This document shows, one piece after another, positions 451-9,238 of a DNA stretch of 64,000 nt. Where the stretch lies: positions 37,793-101,792 of the forward strand of contig JBGTHM010000102.1 of the NCBI GenBank assembly GCA_041746255.1, read 5' to 3'. The notes below the pieces were generated by a model that had not been told where the DNA came from, did no database searches, and worked only from the letters and a program-made list of their open reading frames with translations. Source of the stretch: Fibrobacteria bacterium. Lineage in GTDB: Bacteria; Fibrobacterota; Fibrobacteria; UBA11236. How positions within the stretch are numbered: position 1 is the first letter of the stretch; every line of letters starts with the position of its first letter. Both the position numbers and the translations under genes were made by a program.

Positions 451-617
451 TCCGGGCCCATCCTCGGCGCTCCAATCCTGTTCATCCTACACGCCAAGCC
501 CCGGCCAACTCAGAAGGAATTCGTGTCCGGCAATGGGTTCTGACCCGACATTTTATTTTTTCCCCGCTGCAGTGACACATTCCTCCCTTTGCGGTGTTCC
601 AAGAATAGAATAGACAC

Positions 618-1115
618 ATGGACTCGGAAAAGCTGAAAAACCTGTACCGCCGGTATGGCCCGCTTGTGCTGCGGCGCTGCGGTCGACTATTGGGTAATTC
701 CACCGAAGCCGAGGACGCCATGCAGGAGGTTTTCATGCAGATTCTAAGGAATCCCGCGCTGATCGATGCCGAGTTTCCCTCCAGCCTTTTGTACAAGATC
801 GCCACGAACACCTGTCTGAACCGTCTGCGAGGGCGTTCGCGTCGGGCCGAGACGCGCGAGGATGCCGCCTTGCTCGCCATCGCCTCGGAGGAGGACGTGG
901 AGGCGCGCTCGGCTGCCGGGCGTTTGCTCGACCGGTTGTTTGGACGCCACCCCGAATCCACCCGCGTCATGGCCGTACTGCACTTCTTGGACGGTCTCAC
1001 GCTTGAAGAAGTGGCGCGCGAGACCTCGCTCTCCGTATCCGGTGTTCGCAAGCGCCTTCGCGCGCTGAAGGATAGCTCCCTTAAACTCGGCGACACGGAG
1101 GTTGTCCATGGCTGA
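618..1115 (+). CDS. ECF-family RNA polymerase sigma factor
   Basis: 165 aa. Region 2 (LYRRYG...EAEDAMQEVF...LYKIATNTCLNRLR) and region 4 HTH (GLTLEEVARETSLSVSGVRKRL). Confidence 0.92.
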   Translation: MDSEKLKNLYRRYGPLVLRRCGRLLGNSTEAEDAMQEVFMQILRNPALIDAEFPSSLLYKIATNTCLNRLRGRSRRAETREDAALLAIASEEDVEARSAAGRLLDRLFGRHPESTRVMAVLHFLDGLTLEEVARETSLSVSGVRKRLRALKDSSLKLGDTEVVHG

Positions 1116-1971
1116 GCCCATTTTACCGGGATCCTCGGAACCCGTTTCCGACCTGCTTTTGGAGCGTTACGCGCTCGGCGAGTTGCCGCTCGATCTGAAA
1201 CGGCGAGTTGAGGCGCGACTGGACGTGGATCCTGCGCTAAGCGCCCGCCTCGACTCTTTGCGCGCCTCCGACGAAACGTTGCTGAAGCAATATCCTCCCG
1301 AAGTCGTCGTGCCAAGCCTTAGAAACCTACTCCGACGCGAGCGGGTGGAAATGAATAACCGTAACGCGCATACGGGACGGAGCTCGGCCTATTTTCTGGC
1401 AAAGCCTGTCTTCGCGGCCGCGCTTGTGTTAGCGGCGGTGTCCATCCCCCTGTGGCAGTTCGGGCGATCGGTGCTTCCACCTTTGGTGGATGAAGGCCTA
1501 GTCGCTGTTATTTCCGTCCCGGAACCTTCCGTAATTGCGCCGGAACCCACGAAAGAGGGCACACGAATCAAAGGACTGGATCCCGCCATCGCGCTGTTCC
1601 GACGCACGGATCAGGGCGCCGAGGCCCTCAAGCCTGGCGCGACGGTGCGTCCTGGCGATGTGCTCCGGGTCGGCTATCGCTCCGGCGGTTTTCCATTCGG
1701 CGCCATCTTTTCGGTGGACGGAAACGGTAGCGTTACCCGCCATTGGCCGCTTGCGGGCGACGGTGGGGGCCGCCTCGAGGCCGGAGAGCAACTGCTCCCC
1801 GGCGCGTTCATGCTGGATGCGGCCCCGGATTATGAACGATTTTTCCTGTTGGTTTCGGAAGAACCATTCAATCTGAATCCCGAGCTGGAGGCGCTGCTTG
1901 CCGGTAATCCACCCAGGACACGCGGGCTCCAAACAATACGCTTCGAACTCCTGAAGGACAATGGAATATGA
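1108..1971 (+). CDS. Membrane anti-sigma factor-like protein with periplasmic DUF4384-like domain
   Basis: GGAGG precedes ATG 1108, which overlaps the sigma stop. N-terminal ASD-like helices (SDLLLERYALGEL...VEARL) without Zn ligands, one TM segment (VFAAALVLAAVSIPLW), Pro-rich linker, then an LKPGATVRPGDVLRVGY...SVDGNGSV beta domain. Confidence 0.75.
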   Translation: MAEPILPGSSEPVSDLLLERYALGELPLDLKRRVEARLDVDPALSARLDSLRASDETLLKQYPPEVVVPSLRNLLRRERVEMNNRNAHTGRSSAYFLAKPVFAAALVLAAVSIPLWQFGRSVLPPLVDEGLVAVISVPEPSVIAPEPTKEGTRIKGLDPAIALFRRTDQGAEALKPGATVRPGDVLRVGYRSGGFPFGAIFSVDGNGSVTRHWPLAGDGGGRLEAGEQLLPGAFMLDAAPDYERFFLLVSEEPFNLNPELEALLAGNPPRTRGLQTIRFELLKDNGI

Positions 1972-4364
1972 AAACCCCTCTCGCTCTCATACTGACGGCA
2001 TCGCTCTGCCTGGCCCAAATTACTCATGCCGCGGCATCGGATGGCGCGACGCGCCGATTCGCGCTGGTAATCGGCGCGCACGAAGGCGGTAAGGGGCGCG
2101 ACCGGCTCCTGTACTCCGGTTCGGATGCACGAGCCTTCCAGAATACGCTGCAGGAACTGGGCGGCCTGAGCTCGGTTGACGCGAATCTTTTGATTGATCC
2201 GGATAGCGCAGGCCTGCAGCGAGCCTTCGAAAAACTCGCGGCCCGGGTTCAGGTTGCGAGACGGGACGGCGCGCGCACCGAGGCGGTCGTATACTACTCC
2301 GGCCATGCCGACGAGAACGGTTTGCAACTTGGCAAGGAGCGGTTCGACTATCGAGCCTTCCGGGAGCGGATGAACGCCCTCGGTGCGGATGTGCGCATCG
2401 CGGTAGTCGACGCCTGCGCGTCCGGAGCTCTCACCCGTATGAAGGGTGGCACGCCTGTGCAAGCTTTCATGGTGGACCGATCCGCGCGTGCCGAAGGTTA
2501 CGCTTTCCTTACTTCCAGTTCCGAGAGCGAGGTGGCGCAGGAGAGCGATCGGCTGCGGGGATCCTTCTTCACTCATGCGCTCACCACGGGCCTTCGCGGC
2601 GCGGCCGACGCGACGCGGGACGGGCGCGTGACTTTGCACGAGGCCTATCAGTTCGCCTACCACGAAACCCTTGCCCGAACGGTGTCAACCCGAGGAGGGC
2701 CTCAGCATGCCGCCTACGACATCCAACTTAGTGGTAGCGGTGACGTGGTGCTTACCGATCTGCGTCAGGCCACGGCTTCACTGGTGCTGGCAGAAGCTTT
2801 GCACGGTCGGCTATTCATCCGGGACAGTCTCGATCATCTTACCGCCGAGTTGAATAAGCCCGCGGGACGCGAAATGAACTTTGGCCTACCGCCGGGAACC
2901 TACGGACTGCGCCTACAGCAGGGCACGAGTTGGAGCGGAGCCACGGTAACGTTGCTCGAAGGTAAATCGGCCGTACTTGATCCGTCCTCCTTTCGCCCGG
3001 TCGAGAGCGAGCCCACGGCATTTCGCGGGGGGGAAGGCGATAGTGGTCGTGCGTTCCGGCATTTACAGGGAACAGGAAATCCCGGATTTTCCGCCTCGTT
3101 CCTGTACGACGCGAAGAAAGAGGATTGGTACGGCACTCAGATCGCCCTGCTGGCCACCGATGGGCGCAAGAATCGCCGCGGCGGGCAGGTCGCGGTCGGG
3201 TTCAATTTTACGCGCGGGGATCTTGAGGGTTACCAGGGAGCAGCGGGCTTGAACGTGGTCGGGGGGGCGCTGCAGGGATTCCAGTTCGCGCAAATCGGAA
3301 ACTTCACGGCTGAAGACGCACATGGCACGCAGTTCTCCGGGATCTTCGGAGCGACCGGCGGTGGTCTTAATGGTGTTCAGGTGGCCGGTATCCTTAACCT
3401 CGCCGGCGGCGGTGTCGAGGGCTTGCAAGGAGCCGGAATCTTCAACATCTCGGGCGATTCCGTAAGAGGCTTGCAAATAGGCGGTATCTTCAACATCGCT
3501 GCAGAAAGCGTACGCGGTGGACAAGGCGCCGGTATCTTCAATATCGCGGGCGGAAAGATAAAAGGCGGCCAAGGTGCCGGAATCTTCAACATCACCGCAC
3601 GCGATATTATCGGAGGTCAGGGCGCCGGAATCTTCAACGTGGCCGGAGGCGACATCACAGGAGGTCAGGGCGCTGCCATTTTCAATGCGACTGCGGGATC
3701 TCTTAGAGGCATTCAAGGCTCGGCCATCTTGAATTTCGCCGGCCGGGTCGAGGGGCTTGCTTCGGACAGGGGATCGATGCCGGGTTTCCAAATCACTTCC
3801 ATTCTAAACGTCGCGGGGAAGGTCAATGGGCACCAAATCGGTTTGGTGAATCTATCGGATGACTATCAATCGGGGTTTCCCCTGGGTCTCGTGAATATCA
3901 GCCGAAAAGGCGCGTTTCACGGCATAACGTGGGTGGACGAAACCGGCATGGCCTACGCGGGGCTGCGCACTGGGGTACGATCCGTATATTCCATCCTGGC
4001 GGTCGGAACGAATGCATTCGATGACCAGTCCCTGTTCGCTCCTACCTTCGGCATGGGCGCGCGTTTCTCCTTGGGCAAGTCCTGGTTCCTGGAACCCGAC
4101 CTGATGTACAGCACGCTTTTCGAGTCGAAGAACTATTCATTCGATGACGCGGAAGTAAACACGGAGTGGTCGCGCCTAAGATTTGCCGCAGGGTGGGAAT
4201 TTCTCCCCTACGCTTCCGTATTCTGGGGGGTGGCATACAATGTAGCAGTACACACCCAAACGGATGCCCCGGTGACGGGAAGCAATTTTCCTTTTTTCAC
4301 CTCGGTTTCCCATCACGTCAGCATGTGGCCCGGGGCATTCCTGGGAATTCGTGTCGGAAAGTGA
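1968..4364 (+). CDS. Secreted caspase-family (C14-like) protease with glycine-rich repeat solenoid and probable C-terminal OM beta-barrel
   Basis: Signal peptide; RRFALVIG first strand; catalytic dyad YYSGH (His113) and VDAC (Cys150); AQESDRLRGSFFTHAL; RDGRVTLHEAY; 16-aa repeats; amphipathic C-terminus ending GAFLGIRVGK. ATGA overlap with the upstream gene. Confidence 0.88.
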   Translation: MKTPLALILTASLCLAQITHAAASDGATRRFALVIGAHEGGKGRDRLLYSGSDARAFQNTLQELGGLSSVDANLLIDPDSAGLQRAFEKLAARVQVARRDGARTEAVVYYSGHADENGLQLGKERFDYRAFRERMNALGADVRIAVVDACASGALTRMKGGTPVQAFMVDRSARAEGYAFLTSSSESEVAQESDRLRGSFFTHALTTGLRGAADATRDGRVTLHEAYQFAYHETLARTVSTRGGPQHAAYDIQLSGSGDVVLTDLRQATASLVLAEALHGRLFIRDSLDHLTAELNKPAGREMNFGLPPGTYGLRLQQGTSWSGATVTLLEGKSAVLDPSSFRPVESEPTAFRGGEGDSGRAFRHLQGTGNPGFSASFLYDAKKEDWYGTQIALLATDGRKNRRGGQVAVGFNFTRGDLEGYQGAAGLNVVGGALQGFQFAQIGNFTAEDAHGTQFSGIFGATGGGLNGVQVAGILNLAGGGVEGLQGAGIFNISGDSVRGLQIGGIFNIAAESVRGGQGAGIFNIAGGKIKGGQGAGIFNITARDIIGGQGAGIFNVAGGDITGGQGAAIFNATAGSLRGIQGSAILNFAGRVEGLASDRGSMPGFQITSILNVAGKVNGHQIGLVNLSDDYQSGFPLGLVNISRKGAFHGITWVDETGMAYAGLRTGVRSVYSILAVGTNAFDDQSLFAPTFGMGARFSLGKSWFLEPDLMYSTLFESKNYSFDDAEVNTEWSRLRFAAGWEFLPYASVFWGVAYNVAVHTQTDAPVTGSNFPFFTSVSHHVSMWPGAFLGIRVGK
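3132..3911 (+). repeat. About 16 tandem 16-aa (48-nt) repeats, consensus GxQxaGIFNIAGGxvx (LA_2272-like beta-solenoid)
   Basis: ATCTTCAA recurs at 3438, 3486, 3534, 3582 and 3630, a 48-nt period. Confidence 0.9.
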
Positions 4365-4472
4365 TTTTGAGATTGGCCGGAACATCGCGTAAGGGCTACG
4401 TCGGGCGAGAACCCATACCGGTACGCACCGCACGGTGTGATTGAGACCACAATTCAAGCAAGCGATAATTAT

Positions 4473-4519
4473 TCATTTTTCCTCCGACCGCCTCCAGGCG
4501 GGTGGAGGAATAAAAATGA
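4473..4519 (+). promoter_or_regulatory. Hairpin covering the Shine-Dalgarno and start codon of the lamin-tail gene
   Basis: TCATTTTTCCTCC-gACCGCC-tcca-GGCG-GGT-GGAGGAA-t-AAAAATGA. Confidence 0.55.
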
Positions 4520-6084
4520 TCAGACCCTTGCTTTTTTCCGGCGTAGGGTTACTCCTGTACGGATCGGTTCATGCTGAACTGCTGCTTTCCGAGGTTATGG
4601 CCGATCCGGCAGCGGTACCCGACGCCTCGGGAGAGTATCTCGAGCTGGGAAACTCCGGTGATAAGGAATTGTTCCTCCGGAAATTGTCTATTGCGGTGGA
4701 CGGCGATACCCTGGTTTTCCCCGATGTGAAATTGTCGGCCGGAGGGGTGGCATTGCTATGCCGCGATTCCCTTCCCGAACGGAACGGAGGCATGGCCTGC
4801 GACAGGAAGGCCGAGCGGCTTAGGCTCGCTAACGGTAGGCCAATCGCCATTGTACTTCGCCATGACGAGGGCGACGTAACCTATGAGATTCCCGCTGCAA
4901 GATCCGGTCAAAGCTGGGAGAATACCTGGGACGAAAAATCCGGATATTCCCGATTCGCCCTTGCAAACGGAATCCATGCCGGTGGCGACAAGGGGTCTCC
5001 TGGCCATTCCAACAGCGTGAGTGTCGTACCTCCGCTTTTTGATTTGGCGCTGACGGAAATCACTTTCCGGAAAGAAACGCGCGAGGCGCGACTACGCATC
5101 GAGAATCGGGGGCGCCTGCTTCCGGATTCCGCATCCGTCTCCCTGATTTCCAACCGAATTTTGAACGGCATTCCCCATGCCGTCCTTAAAACCCGGTCGT
5201 TGGACATCTCTTCCTGCCGACAGGAATGCACGGTTCCATTCCTTTTCGAATCGGGAGGGCCTCCCGTGGTTAACTTCGCCTTATCGGGGGATTCCAACCC
5301 TCTGAACGATACCCTCCTCTTTGTCCTTCCCGAATATCGGCGGGGAGGATTGCTCCGGCTCACGGAGGTTTGCGCCGCACCCACCGACGGAGCTCCCGAG
5401 TGGGTGGAGATACGCAATGGGTCTTCCTATGCGATTGCCATAGGCGACCTGCGCTTACAAGACCGGTTGGTTTTGGGCGAAGGGCGCGCGGCGACGCTCA
5501 AGCCGGGGGAATACCTGGTCCTGACGGAAGACGAAAAAGCCTTTCGGGAAATCCACGGCGGTTTGAAATTGCGCCTTGTGCAACCACCCTCGTGGAGAGT
5601 ACTGCGAAATACGGGGGATACGGTTCGCCTGGCTCTCCCCTCGGGAACATTACTGGATAGCGTGGCCTACCGGGGGTTTCGTCCATCCGACAATACGGGA
5701 TGCCTGGAAAGGATGGGTGAGGACCTTGCGCCAGTGCTCGGTGAATCGCATGTGCTGGGATCGACTCCCGGTTTCGAGAAAACCCGGGATAAGCCCACTG
5801 GATGGAAAATTTCACCGAGAATTTTACGAACGGACGAGGGCGGTCGCATTGATATTCAGGTGACCGCTTCGCCGCAAAAAGCATATCGCCTGGAGATTTT
5901 CGATTTGTCGGGGTATTCCGTGCGCGCCTTTTGCTCACCTTGCACGGGTAGCCGTTCCTTTTCCTGGAAGGGGGAAGATGAACGGGGAAAATCGCTTCCC
6001 GTAGGCCCCTACATAGTCCTGTTCCATCCGCAGGGGGACAACCCCCATAAAAAATCCCTGGTCATTTCGAGAAAGTTACGATGA
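4516..6084 (+). CDS. Secreted lamin-tail-domain (LTD) protein, two LTDs plus FlgD-Ig/T9SS-type C-terminal domain
   Basis: SEVMADP...GEYLELGN and TEVCAAP...EWVEIRN LTD motifs; C-terminal IFDLSG...WKGEDERGKSLPVGPYIV. Confidence 0.8.
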   Translation: MIRPLLFSGVGLLLYGSVHAELLLSEVMADPAAVPDASGEYLELGNSGDKELFLRKLSIAVDGDTLVFPDVKLSAGGVALLCRDSLPERNGGMACDRKAERLRLANGRPIAIVLRHDEGDVTYEIPAARSGQSWENTWDEKSGYSRFALANGIHAGGDKGSPGHSNSVSVVPPLFDLALTEITFRKETREARLRIENRGRLLPDSASVSLISNRILNGIPHAVLKTRSLDISSCRQECTVPFLFESGGPPVVNFALSGDSNPLNDTLLFVLPEYRRGGLLRLTEVCAAPTDGAPEWVEIRNGSSYAIAIGDLRLQDRLVLGEGRAATLKPGEYLVLTEDEKAFREIHGGLKLRLVQPPSWRVLRNTGDTVRLALPSGTLLDSVAYRGFRPSDNTGCLERMGEDLAPVLGESHVLGSTPGFEKTRDKPTGWKISPRILRTDEGGRIDIQVTASPQKAYRLEIFDLSGYSVRAFCSPCTGSRSFSWKGEDERGKSLPVGPYIVLFHPQGDNPHKKSLVISRKLR

Positions 6085-6962
6085 TGATTTGGCGTCTTGT
6101 CTGGGTTTGTATGGGAATGCTCCTTCCCGCGTCCGGTTTTTTCCGGGACGATTTGCAGGGAGGGATTTACGGCTCCTCCCTCGGTGCCGGTGGCGGGACG
6201 GCCTGGGAACGCATGGCGCATGGGCAGAATCCGGCGGCATCCAAGGAGAGAGGATACGGAGCCTACCTTGGCTACCATTCGCCCTTTGGTATGGATGGAC
6301 TTAATGTGGTGGAAGCCGGACTCCATATCGATGGGCGGCGTTGGGGGACGGCATTGGGGTTTCTCCAAACCGAGGTCGAGGAATTCTATCGCGAACAAAG
6401 CCTGGAAGTCCAATTCTCATGGACCCTCGGGACGCTTTCCTTAGGCGGCATGGGTGTGCTTCGCCGTGTTCACCTTCCCGAACCGGAAAGCGAGCTAATC
6501 GGTGGAGAGGCATGGGGATTATTATGGCGCCCTTTTCCCAAGTTGGTTCTGGGTGGTTTTTGCCGTAATTTCGCCTCACGAAATATCTGGACGCGTGAAC
6601 TCAATCCGATTGTACAGGTCGGATTTCGGGTTCAAGATGAGCAGGATGGTTCGCATCCTGGTGGCAGGGCGATTCGCCCTGCGCTGGCTTTCGACTTGCG
6701 CCGGGTCCGAAATTCATATTGGCGTGCGCTAATCGCACACAGTTTGTGCATTGGTCCCGACTTAGTGCTGACGGCCGGTTTGGCCAACCGGCCTTTTCAA
6801 TTTTCGGTAGGCGCGGCCATAAGTTGGTCCGGCGCCACGATTTACTATGCGATGCGCACGCATACGGCCTTGGGCCGGACGAATTACCCCGGTCTGGCTT
6901 TTGTTCGTTCGTTGGAAGAAGGTGGAATTTCCGGAGCGGCCGGAGAAAGGCACGCACCTTGA
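6081..6962 (+). CDS. Probable outer-membrane beta-barrel, PorV/PorP-like
   Basis: Signal peptide, SSLGAGGG...NPAA motif of the FadL/PorV-type N-terminus, amphipathic strands; translationally coupled to the LTD gene. Confidence 0.55.
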   Translation: MMIWRLVWVCMGMLLPASGFFRDDLQGGIYGSSLGAGGGTAWERMAHGQNPAASKERGYGAYLGYHSPFGMDGLNVVEAGLHIDGRRWGTALGFLQTEVEEFYREQSLEVQFSWTLGTLSLGGMGVLRRVHLPEPESELIGGEAWGLLWRPFPKLVLGGFCRNFASRNIWTRELNPIVQVGFRVQDEQDGSHPGGRAIRPALAFDLRRVRNSYWRALIAHSLCIGPDLVLTAGLANRPFQFSVGAAISWSGATIYYAMRTHTALGRTNYPGLAFVRSLEEGGISGAAGERHAP

Positions 6963-8278: not shown

Positions 8279-8314
8279 AGAGGCAAATGCGTCTAATTGC
8301 TATTTTCCAGGAAC

Positions 8315-9238
8315 ATGACGGATAATCCCATATCGGCGGACGCGGAGGTGGCTTCGGCGGTAGAGGCTTATTTGGCTTTTATCAAAAATGAAAGAGGTTA
8401 CTCCCGGCATACCCAGTCCGCTTACGCAGGCGACTTAGCCAAGCTAACCGCCTGGTTGGAACAAACTTCCGTTCCTGGAGGCGCTCACGCCGCCCTGGAG
8501 ATACTGGACAAGAAATTATTGCAAAGATTCCTGTTGGCTCAGCGCGGCGGCTTTTCCGCGGCTACCCAGGAAAGGCTTGTGGCCTGCCTGAAAGGCTTCG
8601 GTAAATTTCTGGCATTGCGGTATTCGATGGATAAGAATCCGGCACAGGGCCTGGTTTTCCCACGTAAGGAAAAAAAATTGGCATCGGTCGCGGGCGAGGG
8701 ATTTTTGAAGGAGTTGTTGGAGGTGGAAGTCGACGGGTTTACCGCCTTGCGAACCCGGCTGTGTCTGGAGATGTTTTATGGCTCCGGCTTGCGCCTTAGC
8801 GAGTTGGTGAATTTGAAGTGGAACCATATTTCCCGTGATGCCCGCATGGCCCGGGTATTGGGCAAAGGCAACAAAATGCGCACCGTACCCCTTACCCAAT
8901 CCGCGCAGGAGGCGCTTGGCGCCTACCGGGCCGAATGCTCCCGACGGGCCTATCCCCGGGATGGAGCCCTGCTGCTTACGCAAACCGGCAAGCCGCTGGG
9001 CGGACGAAGCGTACAAAAGAATATCACGGATCTGCTGCGCACGATGGGCAGACAGGGCAAATCTTCTCCGCATATTCTCCGCCACTCCTTCGCGACCCAC
9101 CTTTTGGATCATGGCGCGGATCTCATGGCGGTGAAGGAGATGCTCGGACATTCCTCCCTCTCGACCACGCAAAAGTATACGCATGTGTCGGTCGCCAAAT
9201 TGAAGGAGACCTATGGACGCGCGCATCCCAGGGCCTGA
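8315..9238 (+). CDS. xerC: Tyrosine recombinase, XerC-like
   Basis: ERGYSRHTQSAY, YGSGLRLSEL, GKGNKMR, PHILRHSFATHLL, LGHSSLSTTQKYTH, HPRA C-terminus. Confidence 0.85.
   Translation: MTDNPISADAEVASAVEAYLAFIKNERGYSRHTQSAYAGDLAKLTAWLEQTSVPGGAHAALEILDKKLLQRFLLAQRGGFSAATQERLVACLKGFGKFLALRYSMDKNPAQGLVFPRKEKKLASVAGEGFLKELLEVEVDGFTALRTRLCLEMFYGSGLRLSELVNLKWNHISRDARMARVLGKGNKMRTVPLTQSAQEALGAYRAECSRRAYPRDGALLLTQTGKPLGGRSVQKNITDLLRTMGRQGKSSPHILRHSFATHLLDHGADLMAVKEMLGHSSLSTTQKYTHVSVAKLKETYGRAHPRA

Follow-up and report, generated by a model that had tools for sequence, protein, structure and literature searches.

A conserved operon of sigma factor, anti-sigma factor and caspase-fold protease in Fibrobacteria, with a candidate site-1 protease beneath the outer membrane

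Introduction

What does a caspase-fold protease do in an operon whose other two products are a sigma factor and an anti-sigma factor? We pose this question for a locus of a Fibrobacteria bacterium (genome of 4.59 Mb in 130 contigs) that lies in a 64-kb stretch of DNA, contig C102:37793-101792, hereafter called the window; positions are counted from its first nucleotide. Three consecutive genes at this locus encode a sigma factor of the extracytoplasmic function (ECF) type, a single-pass anti-sigma factor and a secreted protease of the caspase fold. Our tentative answer, to which we give somewhat less than an even chance, is that the caspase would serve as the dedicated site-1 protease of the anti-sigma factor and thereby take part in its regulated proteolysis. 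Sigma factor, anti-sigma factor and caspase co-occur almost obligately whether the search starts from the caspase or from the anti-sigma factor, and this observation speaks for the site-1 reading. New support is suggested by an R-x-K-G motif found at matching places in the anti-sigma factor and the caspase, together with the putative S1 Asp positions of the protease.

The functions and substrates of bacterial caspase relatives are, to our knowledge, a long-standing open question. The locus described here typifies a module that is large, conserved and uncharacterised, and the value of the module lies less in this particular locus than in a sharply testable substrate hypothesis: a candidate substrate, a candidate cut site between K and G of R-x-K-G, a candidate autoprocessing site and a reporter promoter are all defined in sequence within one small, widely recurring operon.

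The operon and its sigma factor

The open reading frames (ORFs) of the trio run on the + strand of the window at 618-1115, 1102/1108-1971 and 1968-4364. Their features, some assigned from AlphaFold2 (AF2) models with a predicted local distance difference test score (pLDDT), are as follows.

572..598, + strand: GTGACA-N16-GTGTT, a promoter-like motif 19 nt in front of the sigma ATG, with the -35 and -10 elements of a candidate autoregulated ECF promoter
618..1115, + strand: ECF (group 4) sigma-70 family sigma factor, 165 aa (Sigma70_r2, Sigma70_ECF, TIGR02937)
1108..1971, + strand: single-pass anti-sigma factor, 287 aa, from the ATG at 1108 (the ORF list begins at TTG 1102; the gene-caller version P0125 is also 287 aa)
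1564..1575, + strand: anti-sigma R153-I-K155-G156, candidate cleavage site at the junction of disordered linker and immunoglobulin (Ig)-like domain, from column conservation
1576..1968, + strand: predicted periplasmic beta-sandwich of the anti-sigma factor, residues 157-287 (AF2 pLDDT ~95; generic Ig/macroglobulin-like fold matches)
1968..4364, + strand: secreted caspase-fold protease, 798 aa (profile matches, AF2 model, structure search)
2304..2306, + strand: codon of catalytic His113, invariant in homologues
2415..2417, + strand: codon of catalytic Cys150 in the motif D148-A-C150-A-S-G, invariant and aligned to DSCHSG of Arabidopsis metacaspase 4
2433..2450, + strand: caspase T156-R-M-K159-G-G, candidate autoprocessing site in an L2-like loop, with the low-confidence loop 161-172 directly after it
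3084..3902, + strand: beta-solenoid stalk of LA_2272-type 16-residue repeats (AF2 strand pairs, structure matches, 48-bp DNA repeat)
3903..4364, + strand: predicted C-terminal 8-stranded OmpA-like outer-membrane barrel, a membrane anchor (structure matches, residues 645/648-798)

Started at the ATG at 1108, the anti-sigma gene overlaps the sigma gene, whose TGA occupies 1113-1115, by 8 nt, and the caspase start overlaps the anti-sigma stop by 4 nt in the ATGA at 1968-1971. These overlaps bear out the translational coupling that had been claimed in an earlier interpretation of the locus from its letters alone (hereafter the sequence-only reading). That reading was also right in calling the first product an ECF sigma factor, as Sigma70_r2 (E 3.5e-15, 56 bits against a cut-off of 24) and Sigma70_ECF (23.1 bits against 21.1) of Pfam and TIGR02937 of NCBIfam (69.4 bits against 42.9) all match above their cut-offs, with Sigma70_r4_2 of Pfam just below its own (25.0 bits against 25.7). 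The protein is small and consists of sigma2 and sigma4 domains only, which is the composition of ECF (group 4) sigma factors.

Conservation of the trio

The caspase protein was matched in 31 of 41 related genomes. All three genes stand in order on one strand in 9 of 11 relatives' loci, or in 9 of 10 if L011 (genome G021), which ends at the locus edge inside the anti-sigma gene, is set aside. At L004/L016 (genome G002) a full-length gene for caspase, solenoid and barrel has no sigma or anti-sigma gene within 6 kb; this genome holds seven matches to the caspase protein. Searching genome contigs with the single protein gave 4 loci, all of them duplicates of the relatives' loci.

A larger set came from metagenomes, where a scan with the 120-row caspase alignment left 80 loci at 33-55% identity. 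In 75 of the 80, a hidden Markov model made from the anti-sigma alignment recognises the ORF immediately before the caspase gene, on its strand, as an anti-sigma gene. Four of the five loci without one have less than 300 nt of upstream sequence, and the fifth, L071, has a flagellin-like ORF in that place. The sigma gene was found in 59 of the 80 loci; the contig ends in or before the anti-sigma gene in 19 of the 21 misses, and only L022 and L071 miss it with room for it.

When the search starts from the anti-sigma factor, its profile finds matches at E<=1e-5 in 66 of the 121 Fibrobacterota genomes sampled, and the full trio lies on one strand in 29 of the 30 best anti-sigma loci, the exception being a locus that ends ~300 nt past the anti-sigma gene. 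A gene-neighbourhood survey had been proposed in the sequence-only reading as a check, and these counts show the trio to be conserved well beyond this genome. Among 1.84 billion representative sequences (50% identity clusters) the anti-sigma profile finds 2,124 at E<=1e-30, 3,588 at <=1e-10 and 7,689 at <=1e-3, and the source names of anti-sigma family members and caspase homologues include Fibrobacterota, Spirochaetota, Myxococcota, Acidobacteriota and Proteobacteria. Behind the trio there is no fourth gene common to the loci: a same-strand ORF lies within 250 nt in 34 of 42 loci with at least 900 nt of downstream sequence, and the largest similarity cluster among these ORFs has 7 of the 34.

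Fold of the anti-sigma factor

The window's own anti-sigma protein has no Pfam match, and PF14326 (DUF4384) gives none at E<=1. Two NCBIfam anti-sigma models match residues 19-140 below their cut-offs, NF052375 with 36 bits against 100. An AF2 model from a 32-row alignment (pLDDT 82.4) has three N-terminal helices (15-61), a long helix (64-112) that passes through the hydrophobic membrane segment, a disordered stretch (117-154) and then a confident beta-sandwich (160-283, pLDDT ~95). Residues 11-74 superpose on Mycobacterium tuberculosis RslA as bound to SigL (3hug_B; Z 6.5, root-mean-square deviation (rmsd) 3.1, 62 aligned residues, 21% identity). A helical N-terminus, one membrane helix and a gene directly after the sigma gene are the features of a class I transmembrane anti-sigma factor, and all three are present here. 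The H-x3-C-x2-C motif of zinc-binding anti-sigma (ZAS) domains is absent from residues 1-60, and zf-HC2 appears in 2 of 32 homologues at E 0.23.

The beta-sandwich gives generic Ig- or macroglobulin-like matches only (Z up to 8.4; Foldseek E 5e-4), and the anti-sigma sequence profile found nothing below E 0.3 among solved structures. PF14326 matches, all weak and sub-threshold, occur in 23 of the 32 homologues (best E 0.0033), and among the 120 distant relatives listed 2 carry PF14326 and one bears the name DUF4384. The sequence-only reading had described a protein with one membrane helix, an anti-sigma-like N-terminus and a DUF4384-like domain. The modelled fold, the RslA superposition and the membrane helix uphold the first two parts of this description; the DUF4384 match is weak and sub-threshold, which leaves "DUF4384-like" a weakly supported label for the Ig-like domain. 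The sources of two anti-sigma homologues, P0143 and P0200, call them "ActD" and "ActD-like protein", which hints at a possible link to ActD of Myxococcus xanthus. The act operon of M. xanthus controls the timing of the C-signal.

Fold and predicted topology of the caspase protein

Peptidase_C14 (PF00656) matches the caspase protein with 49.5 bits against a cut-off of 21.4, and this is the only Peptidase_C14 match in the genome. The model of the EACC1-associated caspases (NF047832) stays below its cut-off (50 bits against 140). All 120 aligned homologues and all 92 locus ORFs keep H113 and C150, which confirms the intact His113/Cys150 dyad of the sequence-only reading at exactly those residues; the signal peptide of that reading is upheld too. 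In the AF2 model (120 alignment rows, pLDDT 89.6) the signal peptide is followed by the C14 domain (28-255), a beta-sandwich (261-337), a linker with low confidence at 350-359, a solenoid (373-645) of paired strands with a 16-residue period and eight long strands (649-797). An all-against-representatives structure search aligned the caspase domain with metacaspase 4 (6w8r) at Z 21.1 and rmsd 2.7 over 207 residues.

The solenoid resembles 3p4g, an antifreeze protein with a beta-helix (Z 20.1 over model residues 381-645), and also secreted adhesins, namely EtpA (Z 18.4), HMW1 (15.3) and Ag43 (13.1). In the DNA it is visible as a 48-bp tandem repeat at 3420-3673. The model of the LA_2272 surface repeat family (NF047436) reaches 15 bits, below its cut-off of 25, and one caspase homologue, P0066, is named "LA_2272 family surface repeat-containing protein". 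The C-terminus (645/648-798) matches 8-stranded outer-membrane barrels: OprF-N with Z 15.1, NspA 14.8, OprH 13.4, PagL 12.7 and OmpW 12.3. The repeat solenoid and probable beta-barrel seen by the sequence-only reading are thus both recovered in the AF2 model and the structure matches, the barrel with eight strands. A type Va autotransporter was considered and rejected, as the eight strands match OmpA-type barrels and not a 12-stranded translocator and no Autotransporter Pfam match appears at E<=0.1. The solenoid is dispensable. In 20 of 49 complete homologues encoded beside an anti-sigma gene it is missing, and what follows the caspase-sandwich unit there is 165-237 residues long, against 328-519 in the other 29; judged by eye, the forms without solenoid finish in sequence that looks like a barrel and has a similar G-x-x-F-G-K/R at the C-terminus.

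In barrels of the 8-stranded OmpA type both termini lie in the periplasm and there is no pore through which a passenger could pass, and because of this the solenoid and caspase should hang into the periplasm. From the model we infer that the caspase would be anchored in the outer membrane and face the periplasm. The predicted barrel type therefore supports the periplasmic caspase of the sequence-only reading and leaves no place for its ligand-sensing surface domain: only the loops of a small barrel would reach the surface, and the solenoid is missing from those 20 homologues.

A motif shared by the anti-sigma factor and the protease

At the end of the disordered linker of the anti-sigma factor, right before the first strand of its Ig-like domain, stands the motif R-x-K-G. 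The 32 homologues all have K155 and G156, and at least 90% of them have R153; among 86 locus ORFs (6-7 truncated, ~80 aligned) R is found at its column in 72, K in 79 and G in 80. In the caspase, the stretch D148-A-C150-A-S-G-A-L-T-R-M-K159-G-G places T-R-x-K-G-G 6-11 residues past the catalytic Cys, and among the 92 locus ORFs T is found in 84, R in 91, K in 92, G or S in 92 and the last G in 92. The loop that follows the motif (161-172) has a pLDDT below 50 and is the only internal low-confidence loop of the model.

D53 and D148 are present in all 92 ORFs and line up with Arabidopsis metacaspase 4 at its N-D and D-S-C positions. The Asp residues at those positions of metacaspases presumably line the S1 pocket and select Arg or Lys. 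An Arg/Lys specificity of metacaspases is also stated in the available part of PMC3501461. Judged by these residues, the protease looks active and Arg/Lys-specific, and its putative S1 positions fit cleavage after Arg or Lys.

Promoter and predicted regulon

In 48 of the 58 loci whose upstream sequence is 100 nt or longer, the pattern GTRACA-N16-GTGTT stands in front of the sigma gene, against 0.01 loci expected by chance per shuffled set; when one change is allowed in the second element, the count is 52 of the 58. It lies at a median distance of 25.5 nt from the sigma start across loci, and the same motif is seen in front of the sigma gene in relatives. Its layout would fit an autoregulated ECF promoter, and the module looks, as far as its sequence can tell, self-contained and autoregulated.

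The exact pattern occurs once in the 4.59-Mb genome, at this operon, and the reversed pattern used as a control also occurs once. With one mismatch allowed there are 31 sites in the genome against 45 for the control, and 5 against 10 that are intergenic with an ORF start nearby. A second match of the exact type, on contig 3, sits within a hemA-like gene and was taken as chance. Because the motif is unique in the genome, the predicted regulon would be the operon itself and no wider programme, in a search that is blind to degenerate target promoters. The sequence-only reading had supposed a coupling to wider transcription, and this was not borne out, the operon itself being the only predicted output.

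A candidate route to sigma factor release

If the caspase is the site-1 protease, the ECF sigma factor would be held at the inner membrane by the single-pass anti-sigma factor, whose Ig-like (DUF4384-type) periplasmic domain would hang on a disordered linker ending in R-x-K-G. The protease, a cysteine protease of the metacaspase (Arg/Lys) type exported by its signal peptide, would be fixed to the outer membrane, on the periplasmic side, by its 8-stranded barrel, here by way of a beta-solenoid stalk. A trigger would activate the protease, possibly with self-cleavage at the T-R-x-K-G-G loop, and the protease would then cut the anti-sigma factor between K and G of R-x-K-G (site 1). An RseP-type M50 protease (site 2) and cytoplasmic proteases would clear the remainder, and the freed sigma factor would transcribe its own operon from GTGACA-N16-GTGTT, which would yield more protease in a positive feedback. 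An M50 protease gene, a candidate for site 2, is present in the genome (C111, E 1.2e-59). When residues 24-345 of the caspase and 118-287 of the anti-sigma factor were modelled as a complex, the score was 0.00, which carries no weight either way.

Several points weigh against this route. A regulon that consists of the operon only fits a protease that is the output of the system at least as well, and the protease may be output rather than, or besides, input. The shared R-x-K-G is only four residues long, and in the caspase it could be a structural part of the active-site loop and not a cut site; K159 also lies nearer to the catalytic Cys than what we take to be the autoprocessing sites of metacaspases. 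Two loci depart from the trio, L004/L016 with a caspase gene that has no sigma pair and L071 with its flagellin-like gene upstream. Lastly, the length of the stalk and that of the anti-sigma linker correlate positively (Spearman +0.48 raw and +0.54 corrected; n=49, a crude measure on related sequences), which misfits a simple model of two proteins reaching across a fixed gap. Linkers are shortest where the solenoid is absent (a median of 15 residues against 26). The idea of a ruler, in which stalk and linker would compensate for each other across the periplasm, was not borne out, the correlation being positive; it may reflect shared ancestry.

The caspase as output is possible, and we judge it unlikely but by no means far-fetched. 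The Ig-like domain would here sense an envelope cue, general proteases (DegS/Prc-like, then RseP) would cut the anti-sigma factor, and the sigma factor would induce the operon, upon which the tethered periplasmic protease would remodel or degrade envelope proteins, possibly as a self-destructive or dormancy response. This account draws on the promoter motif being unique to the operon within the genome and on the absence of a conserved fourth gene, which makes the protease the only non-regulatory product of the predicted regulon, and ECF operons commonly include effector genes. Degenerate target promoters would, however, escape the motif search, and the account leaves three things unexplained, which are the invariant R-x-K-G at the junction of the anti-sigma factor, matching a basic-residue protease, the DUF4384-orthocaspase fusions described below and the pairing of anti-sigma factor and caspase in 29 of 30 loci.

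The site-1 reading and a protease that is the output can both hold, and together they would make a self-amplifying switch. The trio as a bistable, self-amplifying envelope caspase switch is a proposal that we consider doubtful: a zymogen beneath the outer membrane would cut its own anti-sigma factor once triggered, for example by an unassembled barrel or a breached envelope, and its own synthesis would then rise and lead to periplasmic Arg/Lys proteolysis and to remodelling, dormancy or death. Were it true, the switch would be a bacterial counterpart of the caspase activation cascade, and the anti-sigma factor would be the first natural substrate to be defined for a metacaspase relative in bacteria.

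It is rather improbable, in our estimate, that protease and anti-sigma factor form a binding pair without cleavage. The Ig-like domain would dock as a pseudosubstrate inhibitor or tether with R-x-K-G in the active site, and the signal would be the loss of this contact across the envelope, through an unassembled barrel or envelope damage, for which RcsF-IgaA provides an analogy of signalling by trans-envelope contact. Obligate co-occurrence agrees with such a pair, the shared motif could serve as a pseudosubstrate, and the best, weak fold matches of the Ig-like domain are macroglobulin domains of protease-trapping proteins (Z 8.4-7.7), a resemblance that does not go beyond the generic Ig fold; the invariant dyad and S1 residues, however, argue for real catalysis. 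Very improbable is a surface-exposed, autotransporter-like enzyme with solenoid and caspase as passenger, an extracellular adhesin or protease merely co-regulated by the sigma pair. In its favour, the order of signal peptide, functional domain, beta-helix and C-terminal barrel mimics type Va autotransporters, the beta-helix resembles the secreted adhesins EtpA, HMW1 and Ag43 and one homologue carries the LA_2272 surface repeat name; against it, the barrel matches 8-stranded anchors and not 12-stranded translocators, the model has no helix between solenoid and barrel, no Autotransporter Pfam match was found and 20 of 49 homologues lack any solenoid.

Comparison with known systems

If the site-1 reading holds, the trio would work most like the sigmaE-RseA-DegS-RseP system of Escherichia coli, with which it shares a membrane anti-sigma factor, an autoregulated operon, as predicted here, and an M50 gene. 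In E. coli, RseA is removed by a periplasmic site-1 cut followed by an M50 site-2 cut; the site-1 enzyme DegS is an inner-membrane PDZ serine protease that is activated by the C-termini of outer-membrane proteins and encoded elsewhere. Unlike DegS, the candidate site-1 enzyme of the trio would be a caspase-fold cysteine protease on the outer membrane that is encoded in the operon itself.

Two systems serve as precedents for caspase-fold proteases acting on anti-sigma factors. As described in the part of PMC11506125 available, DdvS/DdvA of M. xanthus has a periplasmic CHAT module with a His-Cys dyad that was proposed to start regulated proteolysis before RseP. Like the trio it pairs an ECF sigma factor held by a single-pass anti-sigma factor with a caspase-fold periplasmic module; unlike the trio, DdvA has this protease module fused to the anti-sigma factor behind tetratricopeptide (TPR) repeats, where it would act, if at all, in trans within a dimer, and DdvA has a zinc-binding anti-sigma domain and controls genes for CBASS (cyclic oligonucleotide-based antiphage signalling) and CRISPR (clustered regularly interspaced short palindromic repeats). 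In the trio the protease is a separate, predicted outer-membrane-anchored C14 protein, the anti-sigma factor lacks H-x3-C-x2-C and ends in a 130-residue Ig-like domain, and no defence genes lie nearby. In the type III-E Craspase, as given in the accessible text of PMC10028731, Csx29 (TPR-CHAT) cuts Csx30 and frees CASP-sigma. The likeness to the trio is a caspase-fold protease with an inhibitor of an ECF-like sigma factor; Craspase, however, is cytoplasmic, RNA-guided and CRISPR-dependent, whereas the trio consists of predicted envelope proteins. There is no CRISPR array in the 64-kb window, since the 48-bp repeat of the solenoid is its only tandem repeat, and none of five proteins matched a PADLOC family, in line with the sequence-only reading, which had stated that no CRISPR component was present.

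A further combination is known from cyanobacteria, where Table 1 of PMC8283722, a source available in part, has 23 cases of orthocaspases fused to DUF4384; in these, according to PMC8283722 and PMC7475262 as far as their accessible text goes, DUF4384 is joined to a C14 domain that is specific for basic residues. These fusions would further support a functional pairing of caspase and anti-sigma factor in the site-1 reading. The cyanobacterial DUF4384-orthocaspase is one protein, and no sigma pair is described with it in the text available, whereas the trio would have two proteins on opposite membranes.

The neighbourhood of sigma factor and metacaspase, including that of Fibrobacter, is already in print without a mechanism. 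According to the available text of Asplund-Samuelsson et al. (2012, PMC3501461), four metacaspase operons of M. xanthus share sigma-70 factors, and the same operon structure is found in Anaeromyxobacter, Haliangium, Sorangium, Ralstonia and Fibrobacter. Very probably these have the same gene arrangement as the trio. That text gives the gene neighbourhood only, with no anti-sigma factor, outer-membrane anchor, motif, promoter or mechanism; the word "anti-sigma" occurs 0 times in it. In the literature that we searched, this 2012 note on the neighbourhood was the only trace of the trio, with no description of its anti-sigma factor, anchor, motifs or mechanism. In the accessible part of the supplement to the ECF reclassification (Casas-Pastor 2021), DUF4384 anti-sigma factors stand under ECF25 only and "caspase", "metacaspase" and promoter words occur 0 times, and the part of a review available to us (PMC8999054) mentions CHAT proteins near ECF54. 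If the cleavage model is true, an outer-membrane-anchored cysteine protease joins the known ways of ECF sigma release, and envelope signalling becomes linked to the caspase fold outside CRISPR systems.

Neighbouring genes

Upstream of the trio lies a phosphoribosyltransferase gene. Downstream follow genes for a Lamin Tail Domain (LTD)/FlgD_ig protein, a PorV/PorQ/PorP-like protein, an HD protein, a tyrosine recombinase and a PAS-SpoIIE phosphatase. The 152-nt gap after the caspase gene has a sigma-70-like promoter match at 4441-4469. The gene at 4516-6084 (+) encodes a secreted protein (P0004) with two LTDs and a C-terminal FlgD_ig-like domain, and it overlaps the next gene, 6081-6962 (+), whose 293-aa product (P0005) has no Pfam or NCBIfam family and comes closest, by features (0.97), to Atlas clusters that are PorV/PorQ- and PorP/SprF-like. 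The two may be a cargo and shuttle pair of type IX secretion. An operon of five genes that would include P0004 and P0005 was rejected, as neither has a tblastn match in any relative's locus, L013/L014 with ~6 kb of downstream sequence included; given this and the promoter match in the gap, we do not count them in the conserved module.

At 7 of the 34 loci with a same-strand ORF behind the caspase gene, this ORF encodes a related protein of ~810-840 aa, shorter at contig ends (L016 8362-10884, L040, L062, L074, L081, L082 and L097). In the window, a tyrosine recombinase gene of the phage integrase family (XerC/D-like) lies at 8297-9238 (+), 4 kb downstream of the trio, beside the genes for the HD-domain protein and the PAS-SpoIIE phosphatase.

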